Positions 3,942-60,302 of a stretch of DNA of 60,302 nucleotides are shown here, piece by piece (the first letter of the stretch is position 1; each line of letters starts with the position of its first letter). Where the stretch lies: the NCBI GenBank assembly GCA_017650795.1, contig JAGCEE010000275.1:1-60302 (forward strand). The letters are read 5' to 3'. Both the position numbers and the translations under genes were made by a program. The stretch is from Clostridia bacterium. Lineage in GTDB: Bacteria; Bacillota; Clostridia; Christensenellales; UBA1242. The notes under the pieces were generated by a model. That model did not search any database. It had not been told where the DNA came from and saw only the letters and a list, made by a program, of their open reading frames with translations.

Positions 3942-3967
3942 ATCGAGCATGTTGCTCGATTTTTTTT
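3942..3967. terminator. Bidirectional intrinsic terminator
   Basis: ATCGAGCA-TG-TTGCTCGAT hairpin (3942-3960) followed by a T-run (3961-3967) and preceded by an A-run. It sits between two convergent genes. Confidence 0.75.
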
Positions 3968-4676: not shown

Positions 4677-4678
4677 AA

Positions 4679-18000: not shown

Positions 18001-21000
18001 TATTATCTCTTCTTTTTCGCCATCACTAGAATTGGTTAGTCTTGTATAATGTACGGCATCTTTTTGTGTTGCCGATTCAGATAAAACATCTGTTAAATAA
18101 ATAGTATAAACCGTTCTATTTCCGGCATAATCTTCTTCCACTATTTCAATATATTTGTTTATATAATTTCTAAACTCAGTTATGTAATCAGATTTTTCTG
18201 GATTTGTAAACATTTCGGCAGTCATATTCCCTGAGATGTTGGCCTTAGAAATATCCGTTTCTACATCAAATCCTGCAACATATTTTGTATTAACTCCTGC
18301 CCTGTTAAACACCCTATAATATGATTTATAGTAATCAGTATTTTCGTCTGATGGCAATTTTATTAGGTCGTAGAAATTAGATATATCCACTATGTAAGCA
18401 TAGTATTTTAATAATCCACTACTCTTAGATGTATTGTACTTATTGTACTCGCCACTTATATATTCTCTTAAATCGCTTGCCCCCAAGCCTGTTGTTTGAA
18501 TTAGTGATTGAATATTATTTACCGGCGCCTCAAGGTCTACCATCAATGTGACCGTTTTTGCAAAATACTCTGGGTCGGCATAATCTTTGGCTTCACCTTT
18601 AAATTGCAATGTTAGTTTAATTTCGGTGCCATCAACAAAGCCACCAATTTCCTGCAAGTTTAAATCCAAATAATACTTGTTATTGCCAGCAGAAACAACA
18701 TTATACACACTAGTATCAACCCTGTAAGTAAAGCCATTTATTGTATATTTTATTTCGTTTGTATTTATTGTAGATAAAAACTTATTTGCCGAATCTTCCC
18801 AAGTTATTCTAACCACTTCTTTATTTGTGTAATATATCTGACTTTTTTCATATATTGCACTATTATCTTGATTTAACAAACTAAACTCTGGTTTTTCTGC
18901 AACAATTTCAAAATAATATGTAAACTTGTCGCCCGCATCATCTTTAATTTCTACGCGATATTTACCAACTTTATTAAATGCTTGAAGTGTACCAGTATTG
19001 TTTGCATTTATAAATCCATTAACTGTTTTGTTGTTTGCATTATAAATATATGTTTCTGTGTAGTTTTCAGATTTTGTTGGATAATAATATACAACTGCTC
19101 TAAGCTTGTAATAATTATAGTATCTTGAATCGTCGCCATTTCCATAATAGCGAATTATAGAGTTTTCATTTGTAGACTTAACTGCTCCGGAATCGTCTTC
19201 GCCAAGATAAGCATATTTATATTGTGGAATATAAACAGTCACAGGCAAAAAGTTTGTTGTTAAAACAGGAGTGCCCTCACTTAGTTTTGATGCATAATAA
19301 ATGTCATAGTATTGAAGGCTGTCATAAAACTCGTTTATTCCACCCGTCACTCCCAATGCAATCGAGCCACCAGTGTAATAAACCGAATTACCATATTCAT
19401 CAGAATCTGGTTCGCTTATAATTCCATTTCTATCTACAATAAAAACAAGTTTTCTTACTTTTGGGTCATTATCGATTCCATCAGAAGCATATGTTCTTAT
19501 AATTTCATATTTGCCCGAAGCCGTCCTTGTTTTATTTTGGTCGTATTGTTCTAGGTTTACACTATACTTGTATGTATTGCTTTCCCCTGCCACAACAATT
19601 CCTTTATTGTCAGAACCACTTTCGTATACTCTAATTGTAGCACTTGGCTCTAAGTTAAACGCATATGTTTTATTGGTGGCATTTTTAACAAAAGGATAAT
19701 AGTTTAAGACTATACTGTTTACAGATAATGTGCTTGAAGGATCCGTACAGTAGTTTAAATATAGGGTTTCAACATTTCCCATTGTGTATGGGGTGCTTGG
19801 TTGGTAATAGTTTACTTTTTCGCTATTAGATGAAATAACTTCTCTTTGGCTGAGCATTTTTTGTTTTCCGTCTAACTCGTAGTATAATTTCATTTTTGAG
19901 TTGTCGGTAGAAAAAGTAATTGAGTGTTGTGCCGTGCAGTTTTCCATGTAATAGTATAAGCTATCGGTTTGATATGGCGATGCAGCATTGGTTGAGGCAC
20001 AAATAGTATAAAAATCGTATTGAGATTCGTTATACTTTATATCCGCTCCCTGTCCACTAGTCGCCGAATTTTCGTATTTATAATCACCACTAAGTACTAT
20101 TCTGTTTGTTTCTGACGAGTCTTTAACCATATAAACTATATTGCTTACGCCAACTTTTAGATATATTTGTCCCTTATAATTAACCGAGTTGTTGCTATCA
20201 AAATACTCATTAAATAGCCACTCGTCCCAAGTGCTACCGCTGTAATCAATCTTAATAAGTTTGTCTTTTCCGAACAAGAGCGTTCTATCAATAGATGTAA
20301 ACTCACTTTCCGTTGCAATTTTATAATCGGTTTCGTCATTATAATTTGATGTGGTTATTATTGAGTTTGGAGTATCATCCAAAAACACTGAAAAATATCT
20401 ACCATCTCTACCCGTTTCATCGTATAAATAGAAAATATATAAACCGCCACCGGCGATAATTTCTGCGCCAGACAACAAATCTAAATCATAGGTGTTTGTG
20501 TATTCCGAAATTGGAAGATTCCCACCATTGTAAGAAATAATGTATGTAGAAGGTATAGCATATTTAGTAAATTCGGAATTGTACATCGTGTAAAGCACAT
20601 CCGAAGATAATCCCACTTCATTGCTTGTAGAATATTTTGTTGGAAAATATTTATAATCCAAGTGAGATTTTACGCCACTTTCTTTTTCTTTCCAAGAAAT
20701 TGCAAAAAGTGAATTAGTTAAAGCCGAATCAGTAGAAAGCACACCACTTTTAACATAAGAATAACCCGTTGCACTACTTAAAGTATGAATATGTAAATCT
20801 TCTATGTCGGTATCATCAATGGTAAAATATGTTGTAAATCCTTTTTTGTTTTCATTGCCATAACTAAGTTGTAGTTTATACCTTGCATTTTGATTTAAAA
20901 CAACTGTTTCGTCGTCTGGTATGATTACTCCCCTATCATAACTGCCATTAAATGCAACATCTTTATAAATGGTTAATATAGACGAAGAATCAAATATCCC

Positions 21001-22560
21001 AAGTGATGACTTAGAAATAGATATATTTTTGTAAGTATATGTGTCGGCATCTACTCTGCCATCTTCAACCAGCCCTGTTTCTGGATTTATTGTTTTTATT
21101 TCAATTTCAGGAGCATCATTTGTAATCCTAAACAAGAAATATTGAGTTTTAGTGTCATCTGGATTTGTGCTGTATTCGTTGTATGTATAAGTGAGGGAAA
21201 TAAAGTATAACCCAGCCTTGCTAAGTGGGGTTCCGGTGTATTTTTCTACCTTATACGCACTTTCTGTTTTGTCGGTAATTGTTGGCAACCCGCTTGATTC
21301 TTTAAAAGTGTTTAAGTTGTTAAAATAGCAATAATAAGAATCGTCTTGAATAATACTTGCATTTGAGATAAAATAAACAGGCGCTTGATTGGTTTTTGCT
21401 ATATGCTCTGGATTTATAATTGTGGAATTAAAAATCTTACTTATATCACCACCTATTATGCTTGTAATATCGGCAGTGTATTCTGTTCCATCTATTTCAT
21501 ATGCCTTGGTTTGATTTGTATACTTGAACTCTTTTAAGCCATTAGAATCAGTATACATTAGTTGATAACCAAACACGTAAGCAGTTTGATTTGTTTGCAT
21601 AGCAACAATTTCGTTTGTTCCATCAGAATAATACTTTGTTAATGCCTCGTAATTAGAAAATGGGCAAATTGGTGTGTACGAAATGTAATACTTACCTAAT
21701 TCTCTAAATGTGATGTATGCCTTATTTCCCGCCTCATCATCAACCACATTTATGTCCACAACATTATTTTGAGTGCTGGCTCCAAGCTCATCTAATGAAC
21801 TAATTGTTAGGCCTTTTGATGTGTATGACAAACTTGTAGATTCTGTTAGTCCTTGACTAATTCTTGAAATGTTTACATTGTAAAATCTATAGTTGTAAGA
21901 CAAGTACATCAAATTAGCATTGTCGTCATTCTTAGAATAGTTAGAAAAGAACCTTGCGCCATTCTCGGATTTTAATGTATTGTTAAACCTAATTTCAGAT
22001 TTGTTGTAATCGGAATTTCTTAAAACATAGATTGATCTTGAATAATCAAAATGTGTTAAACTATCGTCCACATTTTCATAATTAAAAGAAAAATCAAAAG
22101 TGTACTTTCCGTATGCAAACTCATTTTCATCAACCAAGGCAGGATTTATTCTTAAAGTAAAAAACACACCTTCGTTTTCAGACACTTGCATTCCGTGGTT
22201 AATAAGTTGTGCCGTGGCACTATTACCTGTTAAATCATAAGTATCACCATTTACTTTAATTCGTACAACAAGGTTAGACAATCTGTTAACGTGAGAACCA
22301 AACCCAAGCGAAACAGTCACAGCATTAGCCCCTCTGTTTACAAAATATACAGCATTGTTATTTTCGTAAGGGTTTTTTGTTAATTCGTGGTCATCAGCAT
22401 ATTCATTGCCCACATAAGAAGTTAAATAAGCATCAAAAAAATCATCTGGGCTAATAGCAACATCTGCCCTTGAATTTTTGGCATCAAATAATATGCTTGT
22501 GGTTATAAGCATCAAAAAAGTGACTAAAGCAAATGATAGTATTTTGTTAAAAATTTTCAT
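15007..22560 (-). CDS. Giant (~2517 aa) secreted, C-terminally TM-anchored surface protein of unknown function
   Basis: Uninterrupted ORF. Probable start at the ATG at 22560 (MKIFNKILSFALVTFLMLITTSILF, AAAGGTG upstream). The track's start at 22569 is GTG. Signal-peptide-like N-terminus, Asn/Tyr/Thr/Ser-rich beta-type composition, C-terminal TM segment (IIIIVVSALLAVSGSIVFVL) plus an RRRMKIR tail. No LPXTG motif seen. Confidence 0.8.
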   Translation of the reverse strand: MKIFNKILSFALVTFLMLITTSILFDAKNSRADVAISPDDFFDAYLTSYVGNEYADDHELTKNPYENNNAVYFVNRGANAVTVSLGFGSHVNRLSNLVVRIKVNGDTYDLTGNSATAQLINHGMQVSENEGVFFTLRINPALVDENEFAYGKYTFDFSFNYENVDDSLTHFDYSRSIYVLRNSDYNKSEIRFNNTLKSENGARFFSNYSKNDDNANLMYLSYNYRFYNVNISRISQGLTESTSLSYTSKGLTISSLDELGASTQNNVVDINVVDDEAGNKAYITFRELGKYYISYTPICPFSNYEALTKYYSDGTNEIVAMQTNQTAYVFGYQLMYTDSNGLKEFKYTNQTKAYEIDGTEYTADITSIIGGDISKIFNSTIINPEHIAKTNQAPVYFISNASIIQDDSYYCYFNNLNTFKESSGLPTITDKTESAYKVEKYTGTPLSKAGLYFISLTYTYNEYSTNPDDTKTQYFLFRITNDAPEIEIKTINPETGLVEDGRVDADTYTYKNISISKSSLGIFDSSSILTIYKDVAFNGSYDRGVIIPDDETVVLNQNARYKLQLSYGNENKKGFTTYFTIDDTDIEDLHIHTLSSATGYSYVKSGVLSTDSALTNSLFAISWKEKESGVKSHLDYKYFPTKYSTSNEVGLSSDVLYTMYNSEFTKYAIPSTYIISYNGGNLPISEYTNTYDLDLLSGAEIIAGGGLYIFYLYDETGRDGRYFSVFLDDTPNSIITTSNYNDETDYKIATESEFTSIDRTLLFGKDKLIKIDYSGSTWDEWLFNEYFDSNNSVNYKGQIYLKVGVSNIVYMVKDSSETNRIVLSGDYKYENSATSGQGADIKYNESQYDFYTICASTNAASPYQTDSLYYYMENCTAQHSITFSTDNSKMKLYYELDGKQKMLSQREVISSNSEKVNYYQPSTPYTMGNVETLYLNYCTDPSSTLSVNSIVLNYYPFVKNATNKTYAFNLEPSATIRVYESGSDNKGIVVAGESNTYKYSVNLEQYDQNKTRTASGKYEIIRTYASDGIDNDPKVRKLVFIVDRNGIISEPDSDEYGNSVYYTGGSIALGVTGGINEFYDSLQYYDIYYASKLSEGTPVLTTNFLPVTVYIPQYKYAYLGEDDSGAVKSTNENSIIRYYGNGDDSRYYNYYKLRAVVYYYPTKSENYTETYIYNANNKTVNGFINANNTGTLQAFNKVGKYRVEIKDDAGDKFTYYFEIVAEKPEFSLLNQDNSAIYEKSQIYYTNKEVVRITWEDSANKFLSTINTNEIKYTINGFTYRVDTSVYNVVSAGNNKYYLDLNLQEIGGFVDGTEIKLTLQFKGEAKDYADPEYFAKTVTLMVDLEAPVNNIQSLIQTTGLGASDLREYISGEYNKYNTSKSSGLLKYYAYIVDISNFYDLIKLPSDENTDYYKSYYRVFNRAGVNTKYVAGFDVETDISKANISGNMTAEMFTNPEKSDYITEFRNYINKYIEIVEEDYAGNRTVYTIYLTDVLSESATQKDAVHYTRLTNSSDGEKEEIITNGDIASSNGTISLYSKNSFKLKSIQLFSQELGDLSWSVIKVNGKVYVKSPYTYGMYYSYSSSQDTTAYSLEEISLLQSNNNTQQLYIYSVPKISQLCLDVHVLNQNLSIYKISQIEEGLQEGILIRIPANIEASNNLYAKSLQILTNINGNNDELINISGLDAEFLTKEMEISQDILGLDITYKNVGSYKYVRIQITKKINVNDYFIYNIVDNFDDKYTVINIYGQTIIKEPITSDGYVVSGFDDYGAIYYSSEDIAYKYDTTIYKTATLNIVENIDGSVATRKYNIIKQNDSYYVQSVDEEGEVKTITADKYIDDMIISFSYNILTIKMVHIKYNFNEDKKVLGGSKLFELIINPKEDFNIESEKIRFEIFNEIPSGLNIIGKQTSSDALQILVGDKAYPDSVIINYIKSILKFDYDIIIQMPNQSFVTIRENLILDEDGTYTLTINYLGAMLGCSLSFTFRIANTENFKYSVAKLTSNGTFEEVEATGSAFTFVKDGGEHQIINHYIVNDEYKIMVNSNLDLEVSEYEIQPDSKYFTTIYVITNKNSTTNAPKSYDKVAITKLNKTDDLLKRLLVYGGNIDQQNNDLIRQNLSTTTAYVTTIDEYETGIKVAWSKYSEIKENTIGVEVYYGDLEGSPLNATISDVNGLNSITLKTSGTYYLRFVDKAGNTHLFGNNSSYRDSEFVTLRYLSSVIYEINGDIPINYSIFNNEVNIKVPQNTISYYAIDGKPRINVELNGEECTDYTKNGTYDYTFTKPGLYKVWFTAKIGENSIYEAPIYFTILSSSESRISYTHTGYGTYYIEDILLNNVSVKDDLTNINSGEMYGDYLKNIYIHANDIKTGIGYWTFVINTDNEFNQKFTYTVWINRPNIPIEVSVGNGQTTTSNITVSFNTSNLINNAGDCVLKITGYMTLEITKEKLDAGELKDVYNITIDGTGKYYIEVATTSGQLLYSYYVEKAEPLNTISIIIIVVSALLAVSGSIVFVLMRRRMKIR

Positions 22561-22866
22561 AAAATACACCTTTAATTATCTAATAGTATTCATGTTAATT
22601 GTAGCACAAAAAAAATCCTTTTACAAATGTATTATTTATATTTTATAAATAATTATTATATAAACGGCATACTTTTATGATTGTGATTGCCAATAATTTA
22701 TTGTTTATTTTGTAAAAAGATAATAAATAAAAATAATTAAAATTGTGATAAAAATAATCAAAAATAAAAAATTTTAATTAAAAACAACATTATTTGCCCT
22801 GTTTTTTATTAAAATTATATGAGTTTTTTATTTTTTGTTAAGAACAATCTTAAATGCCACAAGCAT

Positions 22867-22905: not shown

Positions 22906-24894
22906 TTAAAAGTCAAAATCAAATGGATTTGCTGAGGTTTTTAATACTTTTCTATTTCTTTCGGCAACGTCATATCTTATGGCATTTTCATCAAAGAATT
23001 TTGCAGGAACATATGCATCTTCGGCTTTTTCTTTGCTAAATACCGGCACTTTAAACCATTGTGTCATTTTTGTTTTTATTGCTGGTTTGCCATATATTTT
23101 AACTATGTTTACATCGTAAGGAAGCTGTCCTAATTCATATGGCTCAATAAGTGGCCTTGTGACATTTTGCGTGTTTGTTGTTCTGTTTGCATCGCTATCT
23201 TTTTTATCCGAACGACTAACCGATGTATTGTTGATTTTAAGGGTGACATCACCACACATTTTGGAGAATTCTTCTCTTGTTTTTTGGTCTTCTGTTCCAA
23301 TAAATATTTGAATATTGCAGTTGCCCTTTATTGTATCTGCAACTTCTTTGGTGTATTTGTTATCAAGCTGGCTATAAGATTGAATTGCAACTTCAAAGAA
23401 AATTCTTCTCGACCTTGCAACCGTTATCATACTATCAAATTTTGGTATTTTAGGAAGGTTCGCAAACTCATCCAAAATAAAGTATACCGGTTTTTTAAGT
23501 TTTAAACCTGGCGAGTTGGATGCAATTTCTATTAGTTTTTTGTAAATTTGAGAAATACACATTGTTGCAATACAGTGTCTGCTTTCTTTCTCATCTGGAA
23601 CTTTAATAAACAGAACTGTTGGTTGGTCTATAAAGTCGTCAAAAGATATGTCTGTTGCACTTGTTGCGTAGCATACGCCCATGTCTTGGAATATTGCAAT
23701 TTTTGGTTGCATAACACCAAGGAACGATCTGGTTGTGTTTGGCGCATTGTTTACAACTGTGGTTGCAAGTGCTTTAACCTTAGAAAGCACATCTCTACCT
23801 TCGATATATTTTTTTAGTGTTCCCATCATGTTGTCTGGGTCGCTATCTCTTGTTGTACAAATTTTTGAAACATTATAAAAATTAAACTTTTCTCTTGTCA
23901 TTCCAAGTTCTGGATTTTGCGAGTCCTCCAACATGGCAAGCATCATACTATAAACAAAATCTTGTGCACCTTGTTCCCAAGAGGTATCCGTCTTGCTTTC
24001 TATTGGCAGGATTGTTGCTGCTATTTCTCTTAATTCGTTTTCGGCTTCATTTATAAGCGTTTGAGATTTTGATGCCAATTCTGTTTCTAGTGTTGTCCTG
24101 TCTGGGTAAGCAATTTTATTAAATCCATACCATTCCTCGCCATAACTATCACATATTTTTTTATATCCTAATTCGGTTGGATTTGCATTCTTATAAACCT
24201 TTACTTCTTTGTGCAAATTATGTGCTTTATTATATTGCATAAATGCATTGTCCATTGGATTCCATCTAGAAGATGAGTATGGATTACGTAAGTCTAAAAC
24301 TATAATTCTATAACCTTCTTTTCTTAATTGAACCGAGTGGTTGTTGTATAGTTCGCCCTTTGGGTCGGTAATAACCATACATGGTTTTTCGGCACTATGT
24401 GCATAGCACCTTATTGCTGGCTCCAAAACGAATGTGGTTTTACCAGAACCGGTAGTACCAATAATAAGTGCGTGCATTTCTGGATACATATTTACTCTTA
24501 ATTGTCCGCCGGTGTAAAGTGTAGAAATGAGAGTACCCGTCTTTTTTAGTTTTGGAAGATTTTTAAATGTTGTTGGCATAAATGTTGGATTGGTTGCAAG
24601 TTCATTTTCTGTAATAAATCTTGCATTGTAGTGCTGTTCCATCTTATCGCCACCCTGTGTGGTTCCTTCAAAATCTTGCGATTCTTTAAAGTAAGTTTTT
24701 CCACCCAAAAATGTCATTAAGGCAATTAAAATACCTGCACATAAACCAATAATAGCATATGTTGATGTAAAATTATCAGTAAATGACAATCCATCACTTT
24801 TTTTGGTTACAAATGTCACCACAACGCCCGCAACATAACAAACAGCAATCCAGATTAGTGCGCCTTTTATTTTTCCTTTATAGTCTTTATTCAT
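22906..24894 (-). CDS. VirD4/TraG/TraD-family type IV coupling protein (T4CP)-like ATPase
   Basis: 662 aa. Two N-terminal TM helices, Walker A IIGTTGSGKTT, Walker B-like VYFILDEFANLPKIP, then SRRIFFEVAIQSYSQLDNKY, the typical T4CP arrangement. AGGGGA RBS. Confidence 0.8.
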   Translation of the reverse strand: MNKDYKGKIKGALIWIAVCYVAGVVVTFVTKKSDGLSFTDNFTSTYAIIGLCAGILIALMTFLGGKTYFKESQDFEGTTQGGDKMEQHYNARFITENELATNPTFMPTTFKNLPKLKKTGTLISTLYTGGQLRVNMYPEMHALIIGTTGSGKTTFVLEPAIRCYAHSAEKPCMVITDPKGELYNNHSVQLRKEGYRIIVLDLRNPYSSSRWNPMDNAFMQYNKAHNLHKEVKVYKNANPTELGYKKICDSYGEEWYGFNKIAYPDRTTLETELASKSQTLINEAENELREIAATILPIESKTDTSWEQGAQDFVYSMMLAMLEDSQNPELGMTREKFNFYNVSKICTTRDSDPDNMMGTLKKYIEGRDVLSKVKALATTVVNNAPNTTRSFLGVMQPKIAIFQDMGVCYATSATDISFDDFIDQPTVLFIKVPDEKESRHCIATMCISQIYKKLIEIASNSPGLKLKKPVYFILDEFANLPKIPKFDSMITVARSRRIFFEVAIQSYSQLDNKYTKEVADTIKGNCNIQIFIGTEDQKTREEFSKMCGDVTLKINNTSVSRSDKKDSDANRTTNTQNVTRPLIEPYELGQLPYDVNIVKIYGKPAIKTKMTQWFKVPVFSKEKAEDAYVPAKFFDENAIRYDVAERNRKVLKTSANPFDFDF

Positions 24895-29404: not shown

Positions 29405-30016
29405 TTATTTTAATGCTTTTTCTAATTTCTTTTTTGTCCTTGATATTGCATTGTCTATGCTTTTTGTACTTTGATTTAATCTGCCTGCAATTTCGGAATA
29501 ACTAAGACCATTTAAGTATAGCTTAAACACTTCTTTTTCTTTTGCCGACAAATTTTCTTCTATAAATTTTGAAATTTCTTTTTCTCGCTCATTTGCAAGC
29601 AATGCATCTTCTGGTTCTAATTCTGTTGATGGAATATATATATATAAATCGTCGTCATCATTATTGGTGTCGTCTTTTTTTATTGCTCCTTGACTTGTTA
29701 GAGAATAACTATCATTTATTATTCTGTTTTTTAATCTGTTCGCAATTTTTACAGCAGATTGTACTGCTCTGTTTATGCAAAGAGTGGCAAAAGTTTTAAA
29801 ACTCGCCCCTTGATTTTTTTGATAATTTCTACATGCACTATAAAGCCCTATCATTGCCTCTTGTAGCAAATCCTCACTTTCGGCACCAATTAAAAAATAA
29901 CTTCTGGCAATTTTGCTTGCAAGCGCCTTGTATTTTGCTATTAAAAAATCTAGCGCCTGTTCGTCACCACCTTTGTATAAATCTAAAATTTCTTCATCTT
30001 TTAAATCTTTGTACAT
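29405..30016 (-). CDS. sigH: RNA polymerase sigma factor SigH (sporulation/stationary-phase sigma-H)
   Basis: Colinear with B. subtilis SigH as I recall it (ARSYFLIGAESEDLLQEAMIGLY..., SFKTFATLCINR, LYLNGLSYSEIAGRLNQSTKSIDNAISRTKKKLEK). Conserved mrnC-rlmB-sigH gene order. Confidence 0.8.
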   Translation of the reverse strand: MYKDLKDEEILDLYKGGDEQALDFLIAKYKALASKIARSYFLIGAESEDLLQEAMIGLYSACRNYQKNQGASFKTFATLCINRAVQSAVKIANRLKNRIINDSYSLTSQGAIKKDDTNNDDDDLYIYIPSTELEPEDALLANEREKEISKFIEENLSAKEKEVFKLYLNGLSYSEIAGRLNQSTKSIDNAISRTKKKLEKALK

Positions 30017-31539: not shown

Positions 31540-32241
31540 CTAAACTATTGGTTTTAATCTTGGAAGATTTTTTCCCCTAGGGTATTTTGTTGAGGTTTGT
31601 TTTACCTTTTTTATGATTATGTTTGCCCTCTCGCCGTCTATTTCGGCAATAATTGATTTTTGTATTTCTTGCAAAGTTCCACCCAAAAGTTCTATTGCAT
31701 TTTTTGCAACTTCCAATTCTTCATTATACGCAGAGCCTTTCATTGCAATAAAAACTCCTCCTAATTTTACAAAAGGCATACAATATTCACACAAAGTATT
31801 TAATCCTGCAACAGCTCTTGCAATAGCAACATCAAAAGACTCTCTATTTTTTAAAGCAAAATCCTCTGCCCTCTCGTGATAAGCCACAATATTTTCTAAA
31901 CCTAAACTTTGCACAGTGTTGTTTAAAAAATTAACCCTTTTATTTAGTGCATCTATCATTGTTATTTTTAAGTCTGGCCTAATTATTTTTAAAACAACAG
32001 ATGGAAATCCTGCCCCAGCACCAATGTCTATAACGGTAGCATTTTTGCTTATTAGTTTAGCTGGCAAAGCACAATCAAGTATGTGCTTTATCGCAAAGTC
32101 ATTAACCTTTGTTATTGCCGTTAAATTAAACTTTTTATTTTCTTCTACAACTATTTCATAAAACCCTTCTAATTGTTCTAACATTTGCTCGCTATAATCT
32201 ATTTTATATTTATCAAATAGTTCTTTTAATAATTGTTTCAT
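31540..32241 (-). CDS. rsmG: 16S rRNA m7G527 methyltransferase RsmG (GidB)
   Basis: SAM motif VIDIGAGAGFPSVVLKI and an ARAVA motif. Immediately downstream of mnmG. Confidence 0.9.
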   Translation of the reverse strand: MKQLLKELFDKYKIDYSEQMLEQLEGFYEIVVEENKKFNLTAITKVNDFAIKHILDCALPAKLISKNATVIDIGAGAGFPSVVLKIIRPDLKITMIDALNKRVNFLNNTVQSLGLENIVAYHERAEDFALKNRESFDVAIARAVAGLNTLCEYCMPFVKLGGVFIAMKGSAYNEELEVAKNAIELLGGTLQEIQKSIIAEIDGERANIIIKKVKQTSTKYPRGKNLPRLKPIV

Positions 32242-32249
32242 AACATTTC

Positions 32250-34109
32250 CTACTTATCTAATGACTTTAAATATATAATTAAAACAGATATGTCAGCTGG
32301 GCTAACACCCGATATTCTTGATGCTTGCCCAACATTTAGTGGTCTAATTTTGTTTAGTTTTTCACGAGCTTCTATTCTTAATCCCTTTAATTGCATAAAA
32401 TCTATATCTGTTGGTATTATAATGTTTTCTTGTTTTAACATTTTTTCTATATCTTCGTTTTGTTGCGAAATATACCCCTCGTACTTAATTTCTGTATTAA
32501 CATATTCAAGAGTTCTTTTATCAAAGCCATAAAAAATATTGTATATTTTGTTTATGTCAAAAATATCTATATTGCTTCTTTTTAATGCTTTTCTTACCGT
32601 CATGCTTTGGCTTGGCTCGGTTTCACCCTTTTGTTTAAATAACTGTTTTAATGTTTCATCATTTTTTAGTTTTTTATCCAATAGTCCACAAGCTTTTTTA
32701 ACTTGCTTTTGTTTTTTTAGATATTCTTTATATCGCTTATCGCTTACAAGCCCAACCCTTCTTCCAATTTCCGTTAATCTTACATCGGCATTATCTTGGC
32801 GAAGAACGAGCCTATATTCTGCCCTAGATGTCATCATTCTATATGGCTCATTTGTGCCTTTTGTCACAAGGTCATCAATAAGCACACCAATATATGCGTC
32901 ATTTCTTTTTAATACTAATTCTTCTTTTCCTTCTAGTTTTAAAGAAGCATTTATTCCGGCAATTATTCCTTGTGCAGCCGCCTCCTCGTATCCACTTGTG
33001 CCATTTACTTGACCAGCAAAATACAAACCAGAAACAAGTTTGCTTTCTAGTGTTGGTTTTAATTCGGTTGAATCTATTGCATCGTATTCTATGGCATAGG
33101 CATCACGCATAATCTGCGCATTTTCTAGCCCTAAAATACTTGGATATAACTGCTTTTGAACATCTACCGGAAGCGAAGTGGAAACACCTTGAACATAATA
33201 CTCCCTTGTTCCCATACCTTCTGGTTCTATAAATATTTGGTGTCTGTCTTTATCGGCAAATCTAACAATTTTTGTTTCTATACTAGGGCAATACCTTGGC
33301 CCTGTTGAAGATATTTCGCCATTAAACATTGGCGCTCTGTTTAAATTATCTAAAATTATTTTATGTGTGTTTGCATTTGTATAGGTCAAATAACATGATG
33401 TGACATTTTTTGGAGTCTTTTTGCTCAAAAAACTAAAACTCTGTATATCTTCATCGCCTTTTTGTTCTTCCATTTCGGCAAAGTTTATAGTCCTGCCATT
33501 TATTCTTGCAGGAGTTCCTGTTTTAAATCTTAGAATTGTATGCCCAAAGTTTGCTATTGACTCGGTTAAATTTTCTGCCCTCGAAAAACCATTTGGACCA
33601 ACATTTTTGCTGTATTCTCCAATTATTATTCTACTTTTTAAATATACTCCAGTTGCAACTATCACTGCACTTGAATAATATGTTTCGCCCTGCTGTGTAA
33701 TTACACCAACAATCTTATTGTTGTCGGACAAAATCTCTTTTACTTCGGCTTGTTTTATATATACATTTTCTTCGTTTTCTAAAACAAACTTCATTCTTTC
33801 GTGATACTTTTGCTTATCCACCTGCGCTCTTAGACTTTGAACCGCTGGTCCTTTGCCAGAATTAAGCATTCTTATTTGTATACTTGTTGCATCAGTATTT
33901 ACTCCCATTTCGCCACCAAGAGCATCAATTTCGCAAACAAGATGACCCTTGGCTGTTCCCCCAACGGACGGATTGCATGCCAAAAAAGCGATTGCATCTA
34001 GGGATATTGTTAGTAATAAAACTTTATGTCCCTTTCTTGCAAGCGCTAGTGTTGCCTCACAGCCGGCATGACCGGCACCAATTACTATTGCATCAAATAA
34101 GTTTTCCAT
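32250..34109 (-). CDS. mnmG: tRNA uridine-5-carboxymethylaminomethyl modification enzyme MnmG (GidA)
   Basis: FAD motif [20 protein letters not shown], and a C-terminal [17 protein letters not shown]. Start refined to the ATG at 34109, which has GGAGAAG upstream. Confidence 0.95.
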
Positions 34110-34188
34110 CACTTCTCCAAAAATAACAAGTGAGAGTATAACACAAATCAAAAAGATTTTTCAATACATTTGTTTATTGTTTTTTAAT

Positions 34189-35941: not shown

Positions 35942-37045
35942 TTATATTATTCTAACAGGTAAAATCAAGTACAAATACTCGCTACTATCTGTTGCGGGAA
36001 CAACCACGCATGGATTTGAAGGACTATTAAATTTGATTTTTACAAAATCGTCAGTAATTGTTCTAAATGCTTCCATAAAGTATCTTGCATTAAATGCAAT
36101 AAATATGTCTTTGCCCTCAATAGAAATGCTTATGTTTTCTTTAATATTACCAATTTCGGAATTAGAAGTTAAAAGCAATGTATTTTCTTTTATGTCAAAC
36201 TTAACAAGATTGTTTTGACCAACCTTAGACAAAAGTGATGCTCTATCTAATGCATCTAGTAGCTGCGTTCTATTTATTGTAATTTCTGTTGAAAACTCAT
36301 TTGCTATTATTTGCTTATAATTTAAGAAATCACCTTCCAAAATTCTAGTTGTCACTTTGGTATCGCCAATATCTATCATTAAATATTTTTTGTCTACATA
36401 AACATTAACAATCTCATCGCTATCGCCTAAAAGTTTTGATATCTCGCTAAGCGACCTTGCAGGAATAATAACTCCACCATTTATTGTGGAACTAAGTATT
36501 GGTTCGGTCACAAGTGCCAATCTATATCCATCTAATGCTACTGCTTTTACTGTGTTTTGACCAATTTCAAATAATGCTCCTTTAAGTATTGGCCTTGAAT
36601 CATCAACAGCAACCGAGAATATACTTTTGTTTATTAAATTCTTTAAATTTTCGCTTGTTATTGAGAACACATTTGTTCCGTTTACATTGTTAAAACTTGG
36701 ATATTCATCACTTACAAAGCACTGAATAAAACTTTCGGAATCTATATATTTTATTTTAAGTTGATTTTTGTCACTTAATTCTAATTCTATTTTTTCGTTA
36801 GATAATTTTTTAATAAACTCAGAAAAGAACCTTCCTGGTATAACAACTTCGCCCTCAATTTTTACATCGGCTTTAATTTTCTTTTCTATGGATAAATCTA
36901 AATCTGTTGCACTTAAAGTTAATGTGTCTTCCCTTGCCACAATTTTAATTCCTTCCAAAATTGGATTTGTGGTTTTGTTTGGGATTGCTTTGCTAACTTT
37001 TATGACTGCATCGGATAAATCTAAACCTTCACAAATTACTTGCAT
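35942..37045 (-). CDS. dnaN: DNA polymerase III beta sliding clamp
   Basis: Three-domain clamp pattern (MQVICEGLDLSDAVIKVSKAIPNKTTNPILEGIKI..., DGYRLA, ...YLILPVRI). Start refined to the ATG at 37045, which has AAAGGAAG upstream. The track's 46-codon N-terminal extension is not supported. Confidence 0.9.
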   Translation of the reverse strand: MQVICEGLDLSDAVIKVSKAIPNKTTNPILEGIKIVAREDTLTLSATDLDLSIEKKIKADVKIEGEVVIPGRFFSEFIKKLSNEKIELELSDKNQLKIKYIDSESFIQCFVSDEYPSFNNVNGTNVFSITSENLKNLINKSIFSVAVDDSRPILKGALFEIGQNTVKAVALDGYRLALVTEPILSSTINGGVIIPARSLSEISKLLGDSDEIVNVYVDKKYLMIDIGDTKVTTRILEGDFLNYKQIIANEFSTEITINRTQLLDALDRASLLSKVGQNNLVKFDIKENTLLLTSNSEIGNIKENISISIEGKDIFIAFNARYFMEAFRTITDDFVKIKFNSPSNPCVVVPATDSSEYLYLILPVRII

Positions 37046-37177
37046 ATTTTTTCTTCCTTTTAACAGAATAATTGTACCATAATTTATAATAATTTGCAAG
37101 TAGATTGATAATTTTTTAACACTATTATAAGTTGTCATATGTTTGTGTTTTATAATTAAGTATGATAAAATATACCT

Positions 37178-40100
37178 ATGCAAAAATTAAAGGTTTTGGT
37201 TGGAAATAATACATATGGTTTGGTTAGGCGCGCCATAGATTTTATGGGCGAGCATGTATCCGACTTAAACACAGAAAATATTGTAATTGTTCCAGATAGG
37301 CTTAGTTTAATTACGGAAAACCTTATTTTTGACGAACTAAATATTGATGTTTATTTTAATGTTAGCGTAATGGGTATTTCAAAGTTTTCAAAACTTATTA
37401 TAAACGATGCAGGCTTAGAAAACTTAGAATGTTCTAATTTGTCTTCAAAGCTTCTTGTACTTAAAGCAATACAAAATGTTTGCAACAACTTTAAATGCTT
37501 TTCTAAAAATTATACACTCGGCTTTGTTGATGAAATATATGCAAAAATAGAACAAATTAAATCTAGTGGGGCAAAAATAGAAGAATTATCTGACCCAAAC
37601 GCTAGCGATGGAACAAAATTAAAATTTGAAGACATTTCAAGTATATATAATGAATACGAAAGATTACGGGCAGGACTACTTGATAGTGGAGCAATAATAG
37701 ATTTATTTAATTCAATATCATCTTCGTCAGATTATTTAAAAAAATGTAATGTGTTTTTTGTTGGTTTTGACTCAATGACACATCAAGGAATTAGCATTGT
37801 TAAAAACGTGTGCAAAAATGCTCATAGTTGTTTTGTTTGTGTTGTTGAACCAAACGGGCAACAAAATGAAAGAATTTACGACAGAAGTTTTTTTAGTTCC
37901 ATTTTGGCACTAAAAGATGATGGAATAGACCTTGATATAAAATATATAAATGAGCCTCTAAAAAATGTTGATGCAGATTTTGCTTTAAACAATATTTTTT
38001 CAAGAGATAATCAAGCCCAAAGTCATGGATACTTTCAAATAAACAAAGCACTTGGTTTTATGGACGAAATAGACTGTTGCATTAAAAGTATTAACTACAA
38101 TTTAAAAACAAAAGATATAACATTTAAAGACATTGCTATCTGCGCACCAAAAGAATATCATGAAGCACTAAAAAGCAAACTTTCTATGATTGGGGTTGAT
38201 GCTTTTTTAGATGAAAAAGTGCCACTTTTAAATTTTGAGCCAATAAAACTAATTTTGGCATACTTAAATTATGAACTAAGTTCGGTTGGCGAAAACTACT
38301 TAAAAGTAATATTAAATGATATGTGCGAGCAAGATGAAAACACAAAACATAATTTGGTTAATCTTATTGCTCAATACAAATCAATAGATACAATTTTAAA
38401 GTACGAACAAAACATAGATGAAAAACTAAAAGATGAGTTAAAAAATTTTGAATTTTTAAAAATAGAAAAAGATAAAAAAGAAATATCATATTTTATAGAA
38501 AATACAAAAAAAATAATAGAAAAATATAATTTAATTAAAAAAATAGATGATTTTTGTGAAAAAATGCAAAAATTAAATAATATTTCACTAGAAAAACAAT
38601 ACAGGCAAATTGCACAGAAACTGCAAGATATTTTAGACGAAATAAATACCGTATTAAATAACTTACCAATTTCGCTTGATGAATATATTGAACTTTTAAC
38701 AAAGGCATTTTCTGAATGTGAAATTATCGGAGTGCCTAGTGGAGTAAATCAAATACAAGTTTCGGATTACAAAAGCTTTTTTAATAATGTTAAATATATG
38801 TATGTGCTTGGTTTAAATGAAGGAATGTGCCCAGATGTTTTAATGGACAATGGTCTTATTTCCGACACCGAAATATTAAGCAAATCAATAGTAGCAAAAC
38901 TAGAACCAACCACAAAAATTATTAACAAAAGAAACAGATTTAAACTTTTAGAGGTGATACTATGTGCAGCCGAAAAGTGCTATTTATACTATCATGGTTT
39001 TGGTGCCGATGGAAAAAATGCACTTCCAAACGACTTTATTACCGAACTTGAATATTTGTTTAACCTAGACGAAATATCCACCCTTTCGCTTACTTCGTTT
39101 ACCGAAAAAATTGATGTAAATAAAATAATGTACAATGCAGTAAACATTTATAATGCAAACCTACTTGCAAACCAAAATAATAAGCAAGCACAAAATGAGT
39201 ATTTAAAAAAAGTGCTTGTAGATAACAATAAAAAGTTTGTATACGAGCCAAAGTTAAATGTTGCTTGTGATTTTAACGAGTTGTTTTTTGGTTCTAAAAA
39301 GGCAAATGTTTCACTAATAGAGAGTTATAACAAATGCCCAAAGATTGCTTTTTTAGATAAAGGTCTTAAACTAAAAAAACAAAAAGGCGCCCAAATAGAA
39401 CCTAATATTTTTGGAAGTTTTATTCATGAAGTTGGTGAACTATTTGTAAAACAAAATATAACAAACCTTGGCAATATATCGGCTTTGGAAGTTAAAAAAA
39501 ATGTTGTGAACATTGTAAACATTATTAAACAAAAGCCAGAGTTTTACTCTATAACCCTAGAAGATAATAAGTTTTTGTTTGATATGTTATTAAATGAATG
39601 TATAAGATTTTGTAGTTTTTTAAACTACGAGCAAAGCAAAAGTAAGTTTAAACCAAAATACACCGAAAAATACTTTGGCTCTTATGACGGATTTAAACCA
39701 ATAGAAATTGAAGTCGATGGTGAAAAATATCTTGTTTCGGGAATTGTTGATAGAATTGACGTGTGTGAGGATAAGTTTAGAATTATAGATTACAAAACCG
39801 GTAGCACAAATAATGATAATTCTAGCGGTAAAGAACAGTTGTTTTATGGAAATAAAATCCAGTTGTTTATTTATGCCAAAGCAATAAAAGATAATTTAAA
39901 CAAAACGCTGTTTGGTGCTTTTTACTTGCCTATTTCTAACAAGCATCAAAAAAAAGGCGAGCTTAGTTATCATTTAAGTGGTTTTTTTGAAGATAACTTA
40001 GTTGATGTTTTTAATTGCGACCTAGACTTAAATATAGAAAATAAAAAATCTAACATTTTAAATATAGAATTAAAAAAGCCAGATAGATCTGGCACAGTAG

Positions 40101-53043: not shown

Positions 53044-53807
53044 TTAAGCGCCCTCCAAAATCATCTTGTCAGCAACAAGCGCAATAAACTCGCCATTTGT
53101 TGGCTTTTCATTGCTAGTGTACACCTTTAAACCAAAAATTGAGTTTATGTTTTCTATTTTACCTCTATTCCATGCGACCTCTATGGCGTGGCGAATTGCA
53201 CGTTCAACCTTGCTTGCAGATGTTTCAAATTTTTCTGCTATGGCAGGGTAAAGTTTTTTTGTTATAGAATTTATTATTTCGGGCGTATCGATTGCCATTT
53301 TAATTGCTTCCCTTAAAAATTGATAACCTTTAATATGGGCAGGTATTCCAACGGTAATAAAAATATTTGATATCTTTTCATCTATTGCTCGCACTTTCAT
53401 TCTGTCATCTTTTACATCTTGAATTGTTGGTGCCATATTATTTATGTCTGTAATTCTGCTTACAATCACGTCAACAGAACAAGGCTTATTTATATAAAAA
53501 CTTGCTCCCATAGATAATGCTTTTGTGACAAACCCCTCATGCGACAATGCAGATGCAACCACAATTTTTGGACATTTGTTTCCAAGCGAATTTTTTAGTT
53601 TTTCAATAAGCACAAAACCGTCCATAGATGGCAATACAATATCAAGTAGTAGTACATCTGGGCAAAGCGTAGTCACTTCCCTTAATGCAATCTCTCCATT
53701 GTTGTGCTTCCTACAAGTTCTATTTTGTCGTTTGTTAATAATGTTTTTTTTAACATATCATTTAGTTCGGTATTATCTGCTACATATAATTTTATTTTTG
53801 ATTCCAT
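53044..53807 (-). pseudogene. spo0A: spo0A with an internal frameshift (receiver domain split across two frames)
   Basis: One frame (53807-53682, RBS AGAGGAGAA) encodes MESKIKLYVADNTELNDMLKKTLLTNDKIELVGSTTMERLH*. The second frame encodes ...NNGEIALREVTTLCPDVLLLDIVLPSMDGF... and continues through the Spo0A effector domain (GVPAHIKGYQFLREAI, SKVERAIRHAIEVAW) to 53044. Joining them requires one additional nucleotide near 53698-53706. Confidence 0.8.
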
Positions 53808-54062
53808 ATTTTTTTCTCCTCTTTAAAAACAAAAGTATCATAGCATCTTATCACTTAATTTACTAGCAAAAAAAATATCAAAAAACCGCAAAAAATAAGA
53901 AAAATACACATTTTGTGCCGAATTTTTTCTATTTTATACCCATTTTTTCCAATTTTATACCTTTTTTAGAATATCTTTCAAATCTTGTGAGTAAAAAAAT
54001 AACAAAGTCGAAAACAATAAATTATTTCACAAAATAAAAAAATAAAGCATATAACAAAAATA

Positions 54063-55226: not shown

Positions 55227-56336
55227 ATGGCATACAAGGCACTTTACAGAAAATATAGACCAAAAACATTTGATGATGTTGTGGGCCAAGAGCATATTAC
55301 AACAACACTAAAACACCAAGTCATGACAGGCAACATTGGCCATGCCTATCTTTTTACAGGCAGTCGTGGAACCGGAAAAACTAGCACTGCAAAAATATTT
55401 GCAAAGGCGGTTAATTGTCCAAATTTGGTTAATGGTGAACCATGTAATAATTGCGATATTTGCAAAAGTGTTGATGATGGAAGTAGTGTCGATGTTTTAG
55501 AAATGGATGCCGCTTCAAACAATAGAGTAGACGAAATTAGAGATATAAGAGAAAAGGTTAAATTTTTGCCGGTTGGTGGAAAATATAAAGTATATATTAT
55601 AGATGAAGTTCATATGCTTACCGACCAAGCATTTAATGCACTACTTAAAACACTAGAAGAGCCACCAGAACATGTTATATTTATTTTAGCAACAACCGAG
55701 GCGCATAAACTTCCAGCGACAATACTCTCTCGTTGCATGCGTTTTGATTTTAGGTTAATTGATGTTCCAACGCTTTCAAAACTAATTGGAAACATATTTG
55801 ATAAAGAACAAATAAAATATACAAACGAGGCACTTCGTCTTATTGCACTGGCTGGCGAAGGGAGTTGCCGAGATACAATATCTATTGCAGATTGTGTCGC
55901 ATCATTTAGTCAAAACGATATAACGGTAGAAAGTGCCATGAGGGTTTTGGGTGCAAGCGATACCGAGGTGTTTGTTAAATTATATGATGCCATTGGTAAA
56001 AAGAATATTAAAGACGCTTTTGAAATTTTGCAAAATACATTTGATAGTGGTAAAAACTTAACGGTTTTTGCAAAGAACTGCACGCTTCATGCAAGAAACT
56101 TGCTTGTTATGAAAAATTGTCCCGATAGCGAGGAGATGTCGTCTCTTACTCAAAAAACACAAGACTTATTAAAAACACAAGCAAAAAGTTTTGAAAATAG
56201 CGACCTTATGGAATATATGAAAATCTTTTCGTCAATAGAGGCAGAAATAAAATATGCCCTATCGCCTAAAACTTTAATAGAAACGGCAGTTATAACTGCA
56301 ATAACCAAAGACGATAGTCAAAAAAAAACTAAATAA
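55227..56336 (+). CDS. dnaX: DNA polymerase III subunit gamma/tau, domains I-III only (short product in the zero frame)
   Basis: Walker A GSRGTGKTS, Zn module CNNCDIC, DEVHML, SRC motif (LSRCMRF). RBS AAGGAGAGG. The ORF ends 6 nt after an A9 run (56320-56328). Confidence 0.9.
   Translation: MAYKALYRKYRPKTFDDVVGQEHITTTLKHQVMTGNIGHAYLFTGSRGTGKTSTAKIFAKAVNCPNLVNGEPCNNCDICKSVDDGSSVDVLEMDAASNNRVDEIRDIREKVKFLPVGGKYKVYIIDEVHMLTDQAFNALLKTLEEPPEHVIFILATTEAHKLPATILSRCMRFDFRLIDVPTLSKLIGNIFDKEQIKYTNEALRLIALAGEGSCRDTISIADCVASFSQNDITVESAMRVLGASDTEVFVKLYDAIGKKNIKDAFEILQNTFDSGKNLTVFAKNCTLHARNLLVMKNCPDSEEMSSLTQKTQDLLKTQAKSFENSDLMEYMKIFSSIEAEIKYALSPKTLIETAVITAITKDDSQKKTK
56320..56328 (+). repeat. A9 homopolymer at the dnaX frame junction
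   Basis: Counted directly from the sequence: C-AAAAAAAAA-CT. Confidence 0.9.
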
Positions 56337-56361: not shown

Positions 56362-56715
56362 GTGACAAACACCAATAATAGTCAAAATATTGCAAAACAA
56401 TCGCCAAGGGATATTTGGGGTAAAGTAATAATATATTTAAGAGAGCATCATGCAGTTGCCCTTCATATAGCCTGTGGCGACATTACAGATGTTGATTTTA
56501 TAGACGATAAGTTTATAATTAGGACGGCGGAAGATTTTATATATCAACTATTAGAAAATGAAGATAATAAAAAAGAATTATATTCTGCATTTAATAGTCT
56601 TGGCATAAAAGATATAGAGATTATTAAAAAAGAAAAAACATTTACAAAAGCTCAAATTGATTTAAAAATATTAAGAGAAAAATTTGGGGATTTGTTAGAA
56701 ATAGAAGGAGAATAA
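56362..56715 (+). CDS. ORF resembling the C-terminal domain of full-length DnaX (tau), in the +1 frame relative to dnaX
   Basis: The frame is open from 56305, through the A9 run. DIWGKVIIYLREHHAVALHIACGD...FIIRTAEDF...ELYSAFNSLGIKDIEII resembles my recollection of the Firmicute DnaX C-terminus. The GTG start has only a weak, distant AGGG. Confidence 0.45.
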   Translation: MTNTNNSQNIAKQSPRDIWGKVIIYLREHHAVALHIACGDITDVDFIDDKFIIRTAEDFIYQLLENEDNKKELYSAFNSLGIKDIEIIKKEKTFTKAQIDLKILREKFGDLLEIEGE

Positions 56716-57855: not shown

Positions 57856-60156
57856 TTATTTTTCAAACACTTTTACAACAATAACACTCATATCATCTTT
57901 TGCAACGTTATTAGAGAGCTCTAATGCCTTATTTATTATTTCATCGGCAACAGCTTTTGGTGTTGTTGCGGTTATGTTATTTATAAAATCCGACAAATAT
58001 TCTAGTGAAGGAAAACTATCTGTAATCCCATCTGTCATAATAATAATCTTATCGCCACTACTTAAATAGTTTTGACTGATTTTGCTTTCTGCATTTTGGA
58101 CAATGCCAAGAGGAAGCGAACTTAAATTTACAACTTCTATTGTTTCTTTATGTTTAATAAAGCTTTCTGGCGCACCCATTTTTATAAAATCAGCAAGACC
58201 GCTATTTGTGTCAACTACACAAAGGTCTAATGCACTAAACACATCGTCTTTTCCAATACTTAGTAATTTGTTTACACTAGATAATATTATTTCCCTATCA
58301 AAACCAGCTTTAAAAAAATTTTCAATAAGTCCAATTGCGGTTGAACTCGTCTTTTCTGCAAGAAGTCCACTCCCCATTCCGTCGCACAAAGCAAAAAGGT
58401 ATTTGCCACCTTTAATTTTTATTATCGAATAGCAATCGCCACTTTTGTAAGAGCCTGTTTTTGTTTTTGTTGATACAGCAAAGACAACATCATATTTTGG
58501 AGCCGTTTTTAGTGTTAATAAATCCCAACCTGCACGAGAACTAGCACTTTCGGAAATTACCTCCATTTTTTGATTACATATTTTACTAATTACTTTAACT
58601 ATTCCCCCTCGTTTGCTATCACTTGATCTAACACAAATTGTGACCGACTTTGTATTATCGGCATCATCAAAAACAAGAGCATCCGAGCAAATAATATTGT
58701 TGTAAGTAAGTTCGTCTAAAATCTTTTTTTCTTTTCCTTGCTCAAATTTAACCCCATATGCAACCTCTTGTGATAAATCATGCATTATCTCACTAACTCC
58801 CAAAAATTGTTCTGCCAAAAGAACCCTACTGGCATCAATATTATTAACTAGTCCTGCATAGTTTTTATATTGGTCTACCAAATCGTTTGTTGTGCTTAAT
58901 ATTCCGTTTAATCGTTCACACTTTCCGGCAAAATTGCTAGGAATATCCAAAAGTGTAATCCTGCCTTTATTAAAACCAATTTCAATTATGTTTTTTAATG
59001 AATTGTTTGTGTCTAGGGCTTGAAAATTATGACATTTATTAAATGCAACACAGTTTTTACAATTCTTTAATCGCAGTTCATTCAAAGCCATTTTTTTGGC
59101 ATTGTTTTGGTTTATTCCACTACTTATCATTCCCCTATACACTCTGTTCATTTCACTAAAAACATCAGAGAGTTCATTTAACCTAAACTTCAACATCTCT
59201 CGATTGCGATTTATTACACTTTGTTGTGTCATGCAAGATAAGGTGCTTGTAAAGTCGGTTCCTATTTTATCTAATACTTTGCATGGTATTAAAATATAAA
59301 TAAGGCTAGCCACAATAACCGGGATTACAGAAAAAACCGAAAGGTTTTCTGGATACATTAAATACAAACTTACGGCGCAATCAACGGCAATTATAGAAAT
59401 AATAGATATGTATTTATATTTTGTTTTAAATACACATAGCGATAATCCATAAATAACAAAAAGTGATAAAAATTCCGGGCTGTTTGTCGCAAGCAAACTA
59501 CCCATGCCAAAAGAAAGAGAAACAAGCAAAATTGTTGTAAAGTTTGTGGTATATGAAAGTAATAAAAGCACTAGCACGCCAACAAACTTTATTAAGCTAA
59601 TTTCAAAAAAAACTATTTGGCTAAGGCCTGTTGCGATTGCAGTTGCAAACAAAAAGGCGCAGATTATTTCCAAAACGGTAAACCTTCCACATATTCCTCT
59701 AACACAAAATGCTTCAAATATTTTTATGCATGCCAGCATAAATAATAGTTCCAACACAAATTCGGCGATGCTTGCATAAAGATTATAATTTAAATAGTAT
59801 GTTTGAATAAATACCATTGGCAAATTATAAATAAAGGCATATACGAATAAATGGATATATCTTAATGGTTTTTTAATTTTGTAATGTATAAAATATATAA
59901 AGGCAAATAATGTACACATTATTGTGTTTCCAAGTAGTAAATATGGTGAAAAATTACACAAATAAGAAGCCAATAAAAATGATAAACCAAGCCCAACAAT
60001 ATTTTGATTACACCAAACTAATGCAAAAAATATTCCAATAGAAAATGGGAAAACAATGCCACCAATGTTTGCTAAAAATGACACATAAAAAAGTACAAAA
60101 AAAATAGTAAATTTAAAAACAATATTTAGTTTATTTTTTCTAGATAAAAAATTCAT
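57856..60156 (-). CDS. spoIIE: Stage II sporulation protein E (polytopic membrane PP2C phosphatase)
   Basis: 766 aa with about 10 N-terminal TM helices, a central regulatory region and a C-terminal PP2C/SpoIIE domain (SGDCYS...CDGMGSG...IIMTDGITD...DDMSVIVVKV). Confidence 0.85.
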   Translation of the reverse strand: MNFLSRKNKLNIVFKFTIFFVLFYVSFLANIGGIVFPFSIGIFFALVWCNQNIVGLGLSFLLASYLCNFSPYLLLGNTIMCTLFAFIYFIHYKIKKPLRYIHLFVYAFIYNLPMVFIQTYYLNYNLYASIAEFVLELLFMLACIKIFEAFCVRGICGRFTVLEIICAFLFATAIATGLSQIVFFEISLIKFVGVLVLLLLSYTTNFTTILLVSLSFGMGSLLATNSPEFLSLFVIYGLSLCVFKTKYKYISIISIIAVDCAVSLYLMYPENLSVFSVIPVIVASLIYILIPCKVLDKIGTDFTSTLSCMTQQSVINRNREMLKFRLNELSDVFSEMNRVYRGMISSGINQNNAKKMALNELRLKNCKNCVAFNKCHNFQALDTNNSLKNIIEIGFNKGRITLLDIPSNFAGKCERLNGILSTTNDLVDQYKNYAGLVNNIDASRVLLAEQFLGVSEIMHDLSQEVAYGVKFEQGKEKKILDELTYNNIICSDALVFDDADNTKSVTICVRSSDSKRGGIVKVISKICNQKMEVISESASSRAGWDLLTLKTAPKYDVVFAVSTKTKTGSYKSGDCYSIIKIKGGKYLFALCDGMGSGLLAEKTSSTAIGLIENFFKAGFDREIILSSVNKLLSIGKDDVFSALDLCVVDTNSGLADFIKMGAPESFIKHKETIEVVNLSSLPLGIVQNAESKISQNYLSSGDKIIIMTDGITDSFPSLEYLSDFINNITATTPKAVADEIINKALELSNNVAKDDMSVIVVKVFEK

Positions 60157-60263: not shown

Positions 60264-60302
60264 TTATTTTTTTTCTGCAAGCAAATCCCTAATTTGTTTT
60301 AA
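60264..60302 (-). CDS. 3' end of an unidentified gene, truncated by the window edge
   Basis: The minus frame reads ...LKQIRDLLAEKK* and is followed directly by the terminator. Too short to identify. Confidence 0.3.
   Translation of the reverse strand, partial: LKQIRDLLAEKK

Follow-up and report, generated by a model that had tools for sequence, protein, structure and literature searches.

Analysis of the window, the whole 60,302-nt stretch of DNA studied here, showed that its gene for the sporulation regulator Spo0A is not one uninterrupted ORF. One A is missing from the region encoding the receiver domain, and comparison with sibling assemblies of the same species indicates that the deletion is specific to this record and is not a trait of the organism. 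We attribute it to an assembly or consensus error or to a minority allele rather than to a fixed mutation, with a probability of roughly 0.6, as judged from assembled contigs rather than from reads. The gene and its landmarks are as follows.

53044 to 53807, minus strand: spo0A of this record, 764 nt in two frames; the gene is 765 nt in all sibling assemblies.
53816 to 53822, minus strand: Shine-Dalgarno sequence AGAGGAG of spo0A, intact, with its GGAG core at 53819-53816, 8 nt before the ATG at 53807.
53682 to 53807, minus strand: N-terminal ORF of 41 aa, from the ATG at 53807 to the TAA at 53684-53682.
53702 to 53703, minus strand: deletion site, the AA left of the sibling AAA (GCAC-AA-CAATGG here, GCAC-AAA-CAATGG in the siblings).
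53744 to 53751, minus strand: A8 run spanning codons 19-22 (TTA AAA AAA ACA), with a formal A-AAA-AAA at 53751-53745; it is not the frameshift site.
53044 to 53676, minus strand: C-terminal ORF of 210 aa in the -1 frame, with GTG at 53676 as its first start codon and its stop at 53044.

The Shine-Dalgarno sequence, which is kept in the conspecific contigs L001 and L002, and the ATG open a 41-aa ORF that translates to MESKIKLYVADNTELNDMLKKTLLTNDKIELVGSTTMERLH. Its residues 1-35 form the beta1-alpha1-beta2 segment of the Spo0A receiver and are identical to the database protein P0121; its final six residues, TMERLH, are out of frame. The -1 frame translates as ...NNGEIALREVTTLCPDVLLLDIVLPSMDG... 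and ...RKHNNGEIALREVTTLCPDVLLLDIVLPSMDG... as far as the stop at 53044. The 210-aa ORF in this frame contains the phospho-acceptor Asp in LLLDIVLP, the conserved Lys in YINKP, and the complete Spo0A_C DNA-binding domain. Against Pfam, this piece matches Spo0A_C (1.2e-40) and Response_reg at profile positions 43-110 only, and on its own it scores 229.1 bits on TIGR02875. These results bear out an earlier sequence-only reading, which had described a spo0A frameshifted within its receiver domain and one base short, with a ribosome-binding site and the ATG at 53807 opening about 35 receiver residues before a TAA at 53682-53684, and with the phospho-acceptor Asp and the whole DNA-binding domain in the offset frame. 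It had also placed the break at about 53698-53706. Indeed, DNA alignment with conspecific contigs puts a single gap in the run at 53702-53703.

Adding one A at this position (GCACAAC to GCACAAAC, 53702-53703, after GGAAGCACA) rejoins the two frames into a 254-aa protein that reads ...VGSTNNGEIAL... across the junction. On the TIGR02875 equivalog (cutoff 200), the repaired protein reaches 256.7 bits, with aligned positions 2-258 of 262, and it covers profile positions 3-110 of 111 of Response_reg (65 bits) and 1-103 of 104 of Spo0A_C (E 1.5e-40). Residue for residue, it is P0121 (254 aa), which is found on seven to eight contigs of other metagenome assemblies. The C-terminal domain matches the Spo0A structures of B. 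subtilis and G. stearothermophilus with E 5e-39, and the receiver matches 9PHZ with E 3.5e-18. Equivalog model and domain architecture both identify the gene as a true Spo0A ortholog. Both domains, D56, and the conserved Lys are common to this protein and the Spo0A of Bacillus and Clostridium (TIGR02875; PDB 1LQ1, 1FC3, 9PHZ, and 1DZ3/1QMP). The gene differs from a typical spo0A in the 1-nt deletion that interrupts it in this record. Further, relative to B. subtilis Spo0A, the acidic DD of the receiver is reduced to one Asp, with VAD-N against VADDN (a one-residue gap). The VAD-N codons lie at 53772-53780 of the window, and P0001-P0005 and 37 of 80 related species share the motif; most relatives have a single Asp in place of the pair, and a DD acidic pair at that receiver position is present in only about 5 of the 80.

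The window is a replication-origin region that includes jag-yidC-yidD-rnpA (220-2684), dnaA (13204-14559), mnmG/rsmG (31540-34151), dnaN (35942-37183), addBA, tlyA, dnaE, whiA, murB, spo0A, dnaX-ybaB-recR, and spoIIE. In Bacillus and Clostridium, the usual neighborhood of spo0A is spoIVB-recN. Here, spo0A instead adjoins murB; its flanks are murB-whiA-dnaE and dnaX-ybaB-recR-spoIIE, and dnaA is about 40 kb away. A SigH-like gene (29405-30016, 203 aa) matches the SigH models from end to end, as does spoIIE (57856-60156, 766 aa) the TIGR02865 model, but their scores of 173-175 bits and 384.6 bits, respectively, fall short of the cutoffs (490.8 for TIGR02865). The view that sigH and spoIIE look intact was upheld, as both are uninterrupted and match their models over the full length, though with scores below cutoff. 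Upstream of spo0A (53860-54030, minus strand), we noticed two 0A-box-like sequences, TTCGACT near 53991-53997 and TTCGGCA, the reverse complement of TGCCGAA, near 53914-53921. These putative 0A boxes, picked out by eye, would fit autoregulation by Spo0A. A direct repeat, GGTATAAAAT, also occurs twice in the upstream region, near 53930-53960.

Several other loci in the window drew attention. On the plus strand, dnaX (55227-56336) is short, at 369 aa, and ends after domain III; a 117-aa ORF without a family match (56362-56715, plus strand) follows in another frame, between dnaX and ybaB-recR. The same dnaX and 117-aa calls are made in all sibling contigs, indicating that they are not an error of this record. 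A 2520-aa ORF without a Pfam domain (15007-22569, minus strand) adjoins a gene for a VirD4/TraG-type coupling protein (22906-24894, minus strand; T4SS-DNA_transf, TrwB_AAD_bind, and TraG-D_C). Both lie between dnaA and leuS and are unchanged in the sibling contig. Exact database look-ups of the 2520-aa ORF and of an 837-aa ORF returned no match, in the case of the former because the sibling gene call uses a different start codon and is 2517 aa long. The ORFs at 3966-4706 and 4679-5377 (both minus strand) were considered as a possible split gene and rejected as such, being tandem full-length Zn_peptidase_2 paralogs (278 and 94 bits).

We compared the window with nine overlapping conspecific contigs of 98-100% identity, eight of which cover spo0A. 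Identity to the window is 99.1% for L001, 98.1% for L002, and 99.88-99.99% for L083-L088. L089, L090, and L091 cover other parts of the window and are 99.99-100% identical to it, L089 and L091 being taken from elsewhere on the L083 and L084 contigs. All eight sibling contigs that cover the gene have AAA and an intact spo0A, reading GCACAAACAATGG where the window reads GCACAACAATGG. The sequence-only reading had looked to an alignment with relatives to find the missing base, and the siblings do show one A lost from AAA. The run belongs to codons ACA AAC (Thr35 Asn36), which become ACA AC, leaving codons 1-35 out of frame with the remaining 219. A single ORF of about 250 aa restored by one extra base, which the same reading had looked for in resequencing, is in effect what independent assemblies of the same strain provide (contigs 99.98-100% identical).

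The description of the break as not a homopolymer is true only in a loose sense, as the siblings have ACAAAC against ACAAC in the window, a short homopolymer. Similarly, the statement that no slippery heptamer is present holds at the junction but not for the formal A-AAA-AAA in the A8 run 45 nt upstream. Position 53744, at the edge of that run, is a strain SNP: L001 and L002 have T, which makes residue 22 Ser instead of Thr. The deletion site, with three A's in the siblings and two in the window, lacks the long simple repeat of a phase-variable locus, which typically has at least 7 units.

Compared codon by codon with L001, the repaired gene shows 14 synonymous changes and 1 nonsynonymous change; with L002, the counts are 7 and 1, respectively. 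Only synonymous changes separate it from L083 and L088, and no codon differs from L084, L085, or L086. Beyond the species, spo0A is full-length, stop-free, and in a single frame in all 80 related species examined (GTDB representative genomes, L003-L082). These relatives are uncultured gut Clostridia, several of them labelled Christensenella or Christensenellaceae, and the nearest is 74% identical in Spo0A protein sequence, so that the window's own species is absent from this collection. The best 120 protein matches are 242-293 aa long and have both domains, except for one of 215 aa. By these sequence comparisons, spo0A in the species is an intact 254-aa gene under strong purifying selection, with no sign of decay. 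The organism is an uncultured gut Clostridia species of about 30% GC, probably from a ruminant gut.

The related orthologs also differ at the phospho-acceptor site. Glu replaces the phospho-acceptor Asp in 33 of the 80 (for example, VLLECILP), namely, L008-L017, L019, L020, L024-L026, L028, L033, and others among loci L003-L082, and the conserved Lys is kept. The site compared is Asp56 of the repaired window protein (codon at about 53640), and the window protein itself keeps Asp. The relatives with Glu at this position are uncultured gut Clostridia whose Spo0A proteins are 55-67% identical. The substitution pattern suggests a clade with a phosphorylation-independent (Asp-less) Spo0A. A quick literature search for aspartate-less Spo0A gave nothing specific, only a general paper on ALR domains. 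This Glu-for-Asp pattern could be of more interest than the spo0A frameshift itself.

Across about 56.6 kb of the window that could be set against near-identical assemblies (L083, L084, L085, L089, L090, and L091), the spo0A deletion is the sole indel. The window differs from ERZ28019258 contig k141_2001742 (60,294 bp; L083 and L089) by four substitutions and this deletion over 45.6 kb, and from SAMN15830193 scaffold_12 (219,988 bp; L090) at none of 10,962 nt. Wherever more than one sibling covers a substitution (for example, 53248, 53284, and 57693 in L083), the change is private to the other contig; at 28982, covered by the L083/L089 contig alone, the difference is not assignable to either side. 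In these alignments, which span roughly 56.6 kb, the window reads much like the consensus sequence of a near-clonal group; the spo0A deletion is the only change that is clearly private to it. A generally indel-noisy assembly of the long-read type was considered and rejected, because comparison with independent assemblies over about 56.6 kb gave zero further indels. The window contains no other split genes.

The deletion allele was also sought elsewhere. Exact look-ups of the 210-aa product, the 41-aa product, and six alternative-start versions returned only the window's own record. The 210-aa product is P0122 in NCBI nr, is found only on this 60,302-bp contig, and clusters with the intact 254-aa proteins; exact look-up of the 41-aa product gave no database record. 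A scan of JGI metagenomes with a pattern fitting both alleles matched neither of them and so is uninformative on this point.

One sibling bears closely on the cause of the lesion. ERZ28653711 scaffold_167 (L085; sample SAMN15830178) is 60,303 bp long, exactly one more than the window, begins right at the window's end at 60302, and carries an intact spo0A. For this pair, one common end and the total size are established; together with the sample naming, they suggest that the reads behind L085 and the window were the same or very similar. L085 has a private nonsense change of its own, TAT to TAA in dnaE codon 13 (L085:10063-10065, corresponding to window position 50239), and its dnaE gene call is shortened to 1172 aa from 1216 aa. 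The product carries PHP and Pol III alpha domains, and dnaE is essential in Firmicutes. An assembly error or a minority variant is the probable source of this nonsense change; the change would hardly be viable as the dominant genotype, indicating that gene-breaking single-base singletons do occur in these contigs. Such singletons appear in short-read metagenome contigs of this kind at about one per few tens of kilobases, a frequency that is about enough to account for the spo0A lesion.

In co-assemblies of near-clonal populations, assemblers follow minority paths. Three to four of the intact near-clonal copies come from samples named XIEF21-1_SAMN158301xx. This naming points to a 2021 study by Xie et al. 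of ruminant gut metagenomes, whose authors assembled short reads with MEGAHIT and IDBA-UD and also co-assembled data from several animals (PMC8199421). The case for tying the window to that study is circumstantial and consists of size, common end, and sample naming.

This record has lost one A from the AAA in codon 36. Our preferred reading is that the dominant organism most likely has a normal, intact spo0A and that the loss reflects either an assembly or consensus error or a minority allele that the assembler followed. We favor it because the deletion is a singleton against seven to eight intact near-clonal copies, because L085, of window size plus one and with the same end, has spo0A intact, and because the private dnaE nonsense change in L085 illustrates how noisy such contigs are. 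Galperin et al. reported that conserved sporulation genes show isolated frameshifts at one or two per genome, often with a full-size gene in conspecific strains, and put them down to sequencing error or strain-level loss (PMC3533761; bioRxiv 10.1101/2022.02.25.481979). As in those 2012 and 2022 cases, one core sporulation gene is hit here and other strains have it at full size. The Galperin cases were isolate genomes, whereas the window is apparently a metagenome-derived contig whose near-clonal siblings pin the lesion to one base in one record. The lesion is of a familiar type, the isolated frameshift in a single genome record, and its site, context, and comparative pattern are not unusual. 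Assembly error and recent inactivation had both been offered as explanations by the sequence-only reading, and both survive, but only as events private to this record.

The second of these, a genuine and very recent null, is possible but less likely than the first. The dominant strain in the sampled animal would carry the 1-nt deletion and be unable to initiate sporulation; on this tentative reading, an otherwise sporulation-competent species would have given rise to an asporogenous form within a host or herd. Short-read (Illumina de Bruijn) assemblers rarely make deletions in 3-base runs. The contig is not noisy overall, and a sole indel in 56.6 kb fits a genuine variant as well as a rare error. 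Further, spo0A is dispensable for growth, making a null viable, unlike the dnaE nonsense change. The copy in the window is without secondary lesions and otherwise matches L084, L085, and L086 at every codon, which gives it the look of a very young null allele. Sporulation is also described as easily lost in two published accounts (PMC3533761; PMC11914059), and individual genomes with a single frameshift in a sporulation gene are on record (PMC3533761; bioRxiv 10.1101/2022.02.25.481979). Against a real null, the allele is seen once versus seven to eight intact near-clonal copies, three or four of them from the same study's samples. The window is otherwise free of private changes, like a clone consensus, and L085, with the same end and one more nucleotide, has the intact base.

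If the deletion were real, translation could stop at the TAA at 53684-53682 and reinitiate at the GTG at 53676, giving a useful 210-aa Spo0A with a crippled receiver that is perhaps phosphorylation-independent. A truncated protein from this GTG had also been proposed by the sequence-only reading; we consider it very unlikely. Only 5 nt separate the stop codon from the GTG on the mRNA, and the DNA-binding domain of the product would be complete (Spo0A_C 1-103 of 104). In B. subtilis, neither the isolated Spo0A C-terminal domain nor the sad67 form, a receiver deletion, needs phosphorylation to be active. By analogy, these forms may serve as a precedent, since in them, as in the 210-aa product, part of the receiver is missing and the whole DNA-binding domain is kept. 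However, sad67-type alleles were engineered or selected, are in frame, and use the native start, whereas the 210-aa product would need reinitiation at a weak GTG. This codon has no well-spaced Shine-Dalgarno sequence, as an AGGG ends 2-3 nt before it and a GGAGAG lies 15 nt upstream. The product would have about two thirds of the receiver fold, without beta1-alpha1-beta2, and would likely be misfolded or degraded. In addition, the allele that encodes it is a singleton with no sign of selection. A real deletion combined with production of a phosphorylation-independent 210-aa Spo0A would amount to a natural analogue of sad67 or Spo0A-C in a gut strain, an outcome that we rate as slightly less probable still.

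Decay at the level of the lineage, in which the species or clade would be asporogenous and spo0A an eroding pseudogene, is highly improbable. It could draw on the scores of SpoIIE, SigH, and AddA, which fall below curated equivalog cutoffs in a divergent lineage, and on the acidic pocket with one Asp instead of two. However, the synonymous-to-nonsynonymous counts of conspecific spo0A (14 to 1 for L001 and 7 to 1 for L002) and the full-length ORFs in all eight siblings covering the gene and all 80 related species argue against erosion. The window copy is also without a second lesion, and the lesion it has is not common to related strains or species. The suggestion of an asporogenous lineage is thus refuted by the eight intact conspecific contigs, the 80 intact related species, and the purifying selection on the gene.

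Programmed recoding, in which -1 ribosomal frameshifting or transcriptional slippage would rejoin the frames into full-length Spo0A, is the least probable reading and is excluded because siblings and orthologs encode spo0A in one frame. As in the programmed -1 frameshifting of dnaX and IS3-family transposases, there are two overlapping frames with the downstream frame at -1 relative to the upstream frame, and the A8 run with its formal A-AAA-AAA lies upstream at 53751-53744. In contrast to those systems, the stretch from codon 35 to the stop (ACA ACA ATG GAG AGA TTG CAT TAA) is without a slippery heptamer, and the two-frame layout is found in none of the eight siblings covering spo0A and none of the 80 related species, including contigs 99.98-99.99% identical across the spo0A region; the two-frame orthologs that the sequence-only reading had named as a sign of recoding do not exist in this set. 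Slippage at the A8 run as compensation for the deletion was likewise rejected, as a shift there would swap the conserved TLLTNDKIELVGST of residues 22-35 (the end of alpha1 plus beta2) for NIINKRQNRTCRKH.

Frameshifts of this kind are already known, and the one described here carries little weight for biology and some for curation. The N-terminally truncated 210-aa "Spo0A" in NCBI nr (P0122) is an annotation consequence of the frameshift, and software that predicts sporulation from genomes would rate this one as spo0A-defective. For a species with a normal spo0A, the record supports no inference on loss of sporulation, on recoding, or on a new form of the regulator. If the deletion is both real and dominant, it would represent a small, clean case of a newborn asporogenous variant in a near-clonal gut population that extends across several animals.
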